A stretch of DNA of 619 nucleotides from the sequence record DQ006827.1. One strand, 5' to 3'. Positions 15 through 619 of the stretch are shown piece by piece (the stretch's first letter is position 1; each line of letters opens with the position of its first letter). Under the pieces are notes generated by a model, which saw only the letters and a list, made by a program, of their open reading frames with translations, was not told the origin of the DNA and did not search any database. Source of the DNA: a phage. A program made the translations under genes and the position numbers.

Positions 15-619
15 ATGCCACGTTTACCTAGGGGACTTCGATTCGGAGCGAATATGGAGGTCTTAAACGACTTCCAGGAACTCTGGTATCCAGAGTCCCA
101 CATCGATTCCGATATGATCTTCCCTTTGTATACCTTCAAAGGTAACATGGGTGGTTCGTTTTTCGATTCCTACGGCACAAATAATATTGTCCGTCAGGTC
201 CGGAAGACGCCACACCGTGCTACAGTTCCTATAGCCTCTTCTGGCTTAAGGCCCTGTACCTCTGTATGGTATGACCCAACCAGCCTGCTTTTCAGAATTC
301 CTGAAATGAGGGCTGAGTGGGACAATGGCATGGGTGACACTGGAGATATTGTCTATAAAGACTTTCTCTTCAGTGCGCCGGCACCTAAGGAGTTCGATTT
401 CTCCAATTCCTTAGCGCCACGCTACAGTAATGCCTTTTCCGCCTTTAACGCCAAGTATGGCGTCATTATCGGAGAAGGGCACGAAACACTTAAGTATTTC
501 GCGCTATTACTTCGCAGACTACATAAAGCAGTCCGTGCCGTTCGGCACGGAGATTTACGTGGTCTCCGGAGGATCCTTGACTCTTACCATAAGGGTCATT
601 GGAAACCTGCTACTGCTGG
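15..619 (+). CDS. A2: Maturation protein A2 (maturation/lysis protein) of a Qbeta-like ssRNA phage; start codon present, 3' end truncated by the window edge (last complete codon 615-617, then GG of a Gly codon)
   Basis: Seen in sequence: the frame is open from position 3 to 617 with no stop, while the other two + frames and all three - frames carry multiple stops. Translation from ATG 15 is MPRLPRGLRFGANMEVLNDFQELWYPESHIDSDMIFPLYTFKGNMGGSFFDSYGTNNIVRQVRKTPHRATVPIASSGLRPCTSVWYDPTSLLFRIPEMRAEWDNGMGDTGDIVYKDFLFSAPAPKEFDFSNSLAPRYSNAFSAFNAKYGVIIGEGHETLKYFALLLRRLHKAVRAVRHGDLRGLRRILDSYHKGHWKPATA (201 aa). Established knowledge, from memory: Qbeta A2 begins MPKLPRGLRFGADNEILNDFQELW and contains RQVRRTPHRVTVPIASSGLRP, APKEFDFSNSLVPRY, AFSAFNAKYG, LLLRRL, GDLRALRR and KWKPATAG in the same order and spacing. 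Arg codon usage is mixed and includes AGG, AGA, CGG and CGA. Confidence 0.9.
   Translation, partial: MPRLPRGLRFGANMEVLNDFQELWYPESHIDSDMIFPLYTFKGNMGGSFFDSYGTNNIVRQVRKTPHRATVPIASSGLRPCTSVWYDPTSLLFRIPEMRAEWDNGMGDTGDIVYKDFLFSAPAPKEFDFSNSLAPRYSNAFSAFNAKYGVIIGEGHETLKYFALLLRRLHKAVRAVRHGDLRGLRRILDSYHKGHWKPATA
80..96 (+). other. Local RNA hairpin inside the A2 coding sequence (7-bp stem, 3-nt loop)
   Basis: ACTCTGG (80-86) is the exact reverse complement of CCAGAGT (90-96); the loop is TAT (87-89). The equivalent Qbeta segment, as I recall it, can form a similar but shorter stem with a UUU loop. Confidence 0.4.
532..551 (+). other. Local RNA hairpin inside the A2 coding sequence (8-bp perfect stem, 4-nt loop GUUC); not a transcription terminator
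   Basis: TCCGTGCC (532-539) is the exact reverse complement of GGCACGGA (544-551); the loop is GTTC (540-543). No U-tract follows, and an RNA phage genome has no rho-independent terminators. The homologous Qbeta segment (recalled) forms a 7-bp stem at the same codon positions, with two base pairs changed on both sides. Confidence 0.5.

Follow-up and report, generated by a model that had tools for sequence, protein, structure and literature searches.

A hairpin in the A2 coding region of Qbeta-like phages, conserved throughout the genus and maintained by compensating mutations

The stretch of DNA analysed here, referred to throughout as the window (619 bases), is the 5' part of the genome of a Qubevirus (formerly Allolevivirus) of the M11/MX1 type. 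At the nucleotide level, it is 93.4% identical to M11 (AF052431 nt 43-661) and 89.8% identical to MX1, with an identity to Qbeta-type genomes of ~74-76% from position ~333 onward. Since no record in the phage collection is identical to it, the window comes from a distinct M11-like strain. It harbours the beginning of the A2 gene, in the form of an open frame that starts with an ATG at position 15, is preceded by a GGAGG at 6-10 and is annotated as A-protein/A2 in the M11, MX1 and Qbeta records. The product of this frame displays 94.5% identity to the A-protein of M11, 62% to A2 of Qbeta and ~40% to the corresponding proteins in group IV phages (SP, FI, NL95). When used as a tblastn query against the phage collection, this A2 fragment matched 50 records, and when searched against a collection of 5.8 billion proteins it gave zero matches at E <= 1e-10; RNA-phage proteins seem to be absent from the latter collection. 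The following features of the A2 gene are central to what follows.

15 to 617, plus strand: A2 (maturation/lysis) coding frame, which contains the hairpin and continues past the window end; its translation begins MPRLPRGLRFGA...
532 to 551, plus strand: whole hairpin, UCCGUGCC-GUUC-GGCACGGA, -14.5 kcal/mol, with a lineage-specific outer pair U532-A551
533 to 539, plus strand: 5' arm (CCGUGCC) of the conserved 7-bp core stem, pairing with 544-550
540 to 543, plus strand: tetraloop, GUUC in the window, different in sequence among lineages
544 to 550, plus strand: 3' arm of the core stem, GGCACGG, with two-sided changes at 544 (with 539), 547 (with 536) and 548 (with 535)

The sole 100%-complementary inverted repeat within the window is found at 532-551. 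Folded in isolation, this segment forms a perfect 8-bp stem closed by a 4-nt loop (-14.5 kcal/mol, z = -5.1), as had been described in a first-pass annotation of the sequence, and none of 200 shuffled versions folded as stably. In the fold of the whole window, every pair of the hairpin has a probability of 0.99-1.0. Some perfect 8-bp hairpin was present in 114 of 3000 dinucleotide shuffles of the window (3.8%), and from the single sequence alone the structure is only moderately unusual. A comparison of the window with the covariance models in Rfam, on either strand, gave no match at E up to 1.

A gap-free codon alignment of A2 places window 532-551 opposite Qbeta 575-594, M11 574-593, SP 563-582 and NL95 561-580, the Qbeta counterpart reading ACCGCGCTGTTAAGCGTGGC (nt 575-594 of AB971354). 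The first-pass annotation had compared the window with a Qbeta segment given as ACCGCGCU-GUUA-AGCGUGGC, which is an exact match to Qbeta nt 575-594, and the three differences that it named are all borne out by the alignment: U536-A547 in the window corresponds to C-G in Qbeta, C539-G544 corresponds to U-A and G535-C548 corresponds to G·U. The outer pair U532-A551 corresponds to an A·C mismatch in Qbeta. This comparison was accurate. The choice of reference record deserves a word of caution here. RefSeq NC_001890 (NC_001890.1), entitled 'Enterobacteria phage Qbeta', is MX1, as indicated by its locus tags MX1p1 to MX1p4. Across the region studied, NC_001890.1 is the same as MX1 (AF059242) rather than classical Qbeta, and it has the same hairpin as the window, so that its use as the Qbeta reference would mask all the compensatory changes.

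Conservation was assessed in a codon-based alignment of 27 Qubevirus sequences, including 24 annotated genomes and two metagenome contigs. Scans of IMG/VR and metagenomes added one new Qbeta-like and one new SP-like contig to the sample, and a DNA-pattern scan of IMG/VR recovered the same three contigs. All 27 sequences have the hairpin at the homologous position, without gaps. Its distinct versions number 14, although the data set is small in that these ~14 versions represent three or four deep lineages. Within the seven inner pairs (533-539 with 544-550), 187/189 cells are paired (98.6-99%), the two exceptions being one C·A in TW18 and one C·A in HB-P24. Of these seven core pairs, three are invariant and another three have changes on both sides. 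Stem registers slid along the alignment display 22-54% pairing, and the hairpin was predicted in every run of the alignment consensus fold. The outer pair 532/551 is U-A in only five of the 27 sequences (the window, M11, MX1, FI4184b and HB-P22); in the other sequences, the two positions are A·C, U·C or U·U. The different versions of the hairpin range in stability from -8.2 to -14.9 kcal/mol, with the two isolates that have a C·A mismatch (TW18 and HB-P24) at -8.2 kcal/mol. The full stem is therefore not absolutely required, since two natural isolates tolerate such a mismatch.

The history of these changes was reconstructed by placing switches by parsimony on a neighbour-joining tree, for which the remainder of the region was used. 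At least six independent two-sided switches were found. Three of them replaced C-G by U-A at 539/544 (Qbeta clade, FI4184b and HB-P24), with no intermediate seen. The same replacement occurred at 536/547 on two occasions, once in the M11 clade and once on the short branch leading to BZ1, with U·G intermediates in VK, NL95 and the MAVO contig. The pair 535/548 has changed to U-A once, in FI4184b. The partition of taxa defined by column 539 is identical to that defined by column 544 and is matched by only 2/406 other variable columns. A mutual-information ranking is uninformative for 536/547 because of the U·G intermediates that are allowed there, and for 535/548 because it is a singleton change on a long branch.

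How much of this could have arisen without any selection on structure? It could be argued that shared ancestry, combined with protein and codon constraints, has produced what looks like compensation. None of 500 column shuffles matched the observed pairing or covariation, but plain column shuffles inflate significance among related sequences, and there are only three or four deep lineages. Likewise, the double change at 535/548 in FI4184b lies on a long branch on which many columns have changed. Phylogeny was taken into account in a simulation in which each stem column evolved independently along the tree with its observed number of changes (20,000 runs). The simulated alignments had a mean of 21.9 unpaired cells, compared with two observed, and two or fewer in 0.095% of the runs (P = 0.00095). 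Added to this are the three separate origins of the switch at 539/544 without observed intermediates, the double switch on a branch as short as that of BZ1 and the silent nature of the compensating partner, which protein constraint cannot explain. An origin without structural selection is thus highly improbable. Covariation beyond chance across Qubevirus, the test set beforehand, was found (tree-aware P about 0.001), and the earlier proposal that selection acts on RNA structure is upheld by it together with the near-complete pairing of the inner stem and its repeated two-sided switches. The hairpin is common to every sequenced Qbeta-like phage and is maintained by compensating mutations.

The coding context shows how this compensation operates. 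The window reads GUC CGU GCC GUU CGG CAC GGA (V R A V R H G) where Qbeta reads UAC CGC GCU GUU AAG CGU GGC (Y R A V K R G). More generally, the 5' arm is made of the third position of a Val/Tyr/Phe/Ile codon followed by Arg and Ala codons, and the 3' arm of Arg/Lys, His/Arg and Gly codons. Each covarying pair joins a third position that changes silently (536, 539, and 548 in FI4184b) to a second position at which the change alters the amino acid (H/R at 547, K/R at 544 and R/L at 535). The covarying sites had been described as synonymous or near-synonymous, which is right for one partner in each pair but not for the other, since the latter alters the protein (K/R, R/H or R/L). Each pair therefore represents an amino-acid change plus silent repair, rather than purely synonymous drift. 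In addition, C533 is invariant in 27/27 sequences although the codon to which it belongs encodes F, I, V or Y, and only 18/196 third positions in the region are invariant. What is preserved by selection is pairing, not sequence: where one arm acquires a substitution that alters the protein, the pair is re-formed through a silent substitution in the other arm.

The types of pairs found in the stem also have a bearing on which strand is under constraint. The seven core pairs comprise 18 G·U/U·G cells and 2 C·A cells. Since a plus-strand G·U turns into a C·A in the minus strand, it is the plus strand that is under constraint. A further observation concerns the adjacent pairs 535/548 and 536/547, which appear to swap a wobble between them: Qbeta has G·U followed by C-G, and VK, NL95 and the MAVO contig have G-C followed by U·G. 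These wobble-swapped versions fall within a narrow span of stabilities (-12.1 to -14.1 kcal/mol), and the swap and the narrow energies may reflect selection on stability besides pairing.

The hairpin forms the tip of a 62-nt arm in the window (510-571; -34 kcal/mol, z = -4.0), the parts of which are as follows.

510 to 518, plus strand: tentative 5' side of the arm base helix, partner of 563-571 both in the MFE fold and in the consensus of the alignment
519 to 531, plus strand: 5' side of the arm middle, in M11-type phages only, with 519-527 pairing with 554-562 in the window MFE fold
563 to 571, plus strand: tentative 3' side of the arm base helix, pairing with 510-518 on the same evidence

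The base helix is largely kept throughout the genus, with pair 512/569 alternating between U·G, G·U and G-C, but its conservation is due mostly to columns that do not vary, and no significance was reached in the tree-aware test (P = 0.10). An extension of the conserved arm through its middle part (519-527 with 554-562) was considered and rejected, as 69/216 cells are unpaired across the genus (P = 0.91). The 3' side of the arm base also contains a perfect palindrome, CUCCGGAG, at 564-571, which is specific to M11-type phages. Several other local hairpins in this part of the genome have been conserved as well. The one at 77-99 is 98% paired across the genus with four covarying pairs, the one at 434-477 has 16 bp that are 93% paired with three covarying pairs, and the one at 57-74 is likewise conserved genus-wide with two-sided changes. 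Window 485-498 corresponds to Qbeta stem-loop #8 (528-541), which is listed as operator-like in the virion (PMC8880383). Among the local helices in the first 600 nt, that formed by 533-550 is the most strictly conserved (99% paired, compared with 70-98% for the others).

Taken as a whole, it is probable that the hairpin is a generic element of plus-strand folding, located at the tip of a local arm (~510-571) and devoid of a sequence-specific ligand. This is also the best remaining reading among those put forward in the first-pass annotation, which had mentioned genome folding: its structural side is established by the existence of the hairpin, the conservation of its position, its covariation and its plus-strand polarity, while the benefit to fitness is something that we infer. 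By locking up a G+C-rich stretch, a stable local stem would help to keep the plus strand folded on itself, a requirement of Qbeta-type replication, and would thereby limit annealing of template and product into dead-end double strands; it may also contribute to the fixed fold, organised domain by domain, that the RNA has in the virion. Work on Qbeta replicase has shown that less double-stranded RNA is produced from templates that are strongly folded and have few G/C in their loops, a rule which natural ssRNA phage genomes obey (PMC4652763). The RNA of the Qbeta virion has 77 stem-loops and a single dominant fold, in which it is arranged domain by domain (PMC8880383). A role in generic folding is, however, a default reading that predicts little specific to this hairpin, and the fact that its conservation is the strictest among local helices could hint at a more specific role.

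One such role would be that of a specific folding nucleus, or of a ligand site, that steers the evolution of A2, with replacements at residues ~174-178 needing a silent partner. We consider this unlikely. If true, K/R, R/H and R/L replacements would be permitted only given a silent change of the partner, and the hairpin would offer a clear-cut example from nature of amino-acid substitutions being gated by RNA structure.

An equally unlikely scenario is that the hairpin is recognized specifically, either through a tertiary contact, by docking on RNA, or through binding of a protein (replicase/S1, Hfq or A2). That no other local helix in the first 600 nt is conserved so strictly would be in keeping with this, as would the documented existence of kissing loops of 4-5 nt elsewhere in Qbeta (PMC8880383). 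The loop itself is not conserved, the window having GUUC, Qbeta-type phages GUUA, group IV GUAA, FrSangria GUGA and one IMG/VR contig GCUA. To a large extent, the loop sequence is fixed by the Val and Lys/Arg codons. With a G+C-rich stem and a 4-nt loop starting with G, the hairpin does resemble GNRA tetraloop hairpins, and GNRA-type loops are indeed found in group IV (GUAA) and FrSangria (GUGA), but these are the only versions in which the consensus is followed, GUUC in the window and GUUA in Qbeta both departing from it. No homologous 4-mer complementary to the loop, in any register, was found as a kissing-loop partner in a whole-genome alignment of 19 genomes. Moreover, the known S and M sites of the replicase are located elsewhere (PMC6071253), and the binding site for A2 is in the 3' UTR (PMC8880383).

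That the hairpin is a contact site for coat protein, or a packaging signal that helps nucleate or stabilize the capsid, is quite unlikely. The idea has some appeal since, in the model of the Qbeta virion, 59/77 stem-loops are within 5 Å of capsid proteins, and those that are operator-like have diverse sequences and are clustered in the 5' half of the genome (PMC8880383). Like these, the hairpin is short, stable and situated in a coding region in the 5' half of the genome; it is also conserved. However, no capsid- or Mat-contacting stem-loop listed in Tables S1-S3 of that study covers Qbeta nt 575-594, the capsid-contacting stem-loops near the site being 492-505, 528-541 and 628-640 (PMC8880383); these are data for Qbeta rather than for an M11-type phage. 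A role in packaging by contact with the coat protein, another suggestion of the first-pass annotation, is thus disfavoured for Qbeta, in which 575-594 lies between contacting neighbours (528-541 and 628-640) and is not itself among them. The architecture of the hairpin points in the same direction. The classical Qbeta operator, studied by Witherell and Uhlenbeck in 1989, reportedly has a 3-nt loop and a bulged A, as opposed to the 4-nt loop and the uninterrupted stem, without a bulged A, that are seen here, and the sequence of that 4-nt loop varies among lineages.

A part in translational control of A2, which had also been raised, appears very unlikely. According to this idea, the hairpin would help to close the A2 ribosome-binding site, or to time its closing, and both its location within the A2 gene and the long-distance control of A2 known in Qbeta (PMC6071253) make it worth considering. 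In Qbeta, synthesis of A2 is restricted to nascent strands, the Shine-Dalgarno region being paired with a distant downstream complement (PMC6071253). In the MFE fold of the window, the A2 start region pairs with 421-430 and 326-332; more precisely, the Shine-Dalgarno region (1-11) pairs with ~419-431, ~410 nt downstream, and 14-20 pairs with 326-332. The pairing between 1-11 and ~419-431 resembles the long-distance interaction by which the A2 start is known to be closed. The segment homologous to window 415-436 retains the Shine-Dalgarno complement in all three lineages (M11-type, Qbeta-type and group IV phages), and the duplex, which differs in sequence by lineage on both sides, has a stability of -9.5 to -15.7 kcal/mol. 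This control thus resembles the hairpin in that it operates in the same gene and in that pairing is conserved through different sequences, but the hairpin is a separate, purely local helix further downstream, in a different domain. Its arm belongs to the domain just downstream of the one that is closed by pairing of the A2 Shine-Dalgarno region with its complement. The hairpin lies ~100 nt downstream of this complement, and it cannot delay closure of the Shine-Dalgarno region since it is made ~100 nt later. Furthermore, neither its arms nor its loop has complementarity to the start region.

Finally, the notion that the stem masks the ribosome-binding site of a hidden overlapping gene is scarcely credible. 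A GGAG at 549-552 followed by a GUG at 559-561 could open an ORF for a hydrophobic peptide in the +1 frame relative to A2, a frame that runs through the hairpin from window ~414 to beyond 619 and that, in most group III phages, continues without a stop for 64-89 codons (47 in FrSangria). This candidate was rejected because the GUG is replaced by GAG in M11, the closest relative, Qbeta-type phages have GGCG rather than GGAG, and the frame is closed after 10 codons in 6/8 group IV phages, all of which retain the hairpin (in the remaining two, it extends for 19 codons in HB-P22 and is open in FI4184b). A2 is strongly conserved in that stretch, which accounts for the conservation of the +1 peptide, and, judging from these comparisons, the ORF is probably a by-product of A2 conservation.

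Beekwilder, Nieuwenhuizen, Poot and van Duin reportedly presented a phylogenetic model of Qbeta RNA, covering the 'first three domains', in J Mol Biol in 1996, and Beekwilder's thesis (Leiden, 1996) contains a phylogenetic secondary-structure model of Qbeta RNA for the whole genome. The M11, MX1 and NL95 records were presumably sequenced by the same laboratory for those comparisons. The region, the method and the comparison set (M11 AF052431, MX1 AF059242 and NL95 AF059243, plus SP) are the same as those used here, and the hairpin is of the same kind as the stem-loops of that model, being local, situated within the A2-gene domain and backed by compensatory changes. Since it is exactly the kind of helix that such a comparison yields, the hairpin is already known in kind and, as far as can be judged in this way, almost certainly in this instance too. 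A literature search for probing data, mutations or experiments on this particular hairpin found nothing specific. The present analysis goes beyond the earlier comparison in covering later isolates (FJ4838xx, FJ5391xx and the Fr phages) and two metagenome contigs, and in applying a tree-aware test. What it adds is a tree-aware statistic, the repeated independent switches in later isolates and the coupling between nonsynonymous and synonymous changes.

No new question is raised by these findings, inasmuch as coding-region hairpins of Qbeta-like phages have been established by comparative means since 1995-96 and form the basis of the cryo-EM model of the genome, Chang et al. 2022 having traced the complete RNA of the Qbeta virion with the help of Beekwilder's phylogenetic secondary-structure model (PMC8880383). 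They do document real selection on RNA pairing within a protein-coding gene, with a textbook-type example of an amino-acid change in one arm of a stem that is matched by a silent change in the other. The hairpin also represents a convenient, purely synonymous handle on the value of local structure to an RNA phage.
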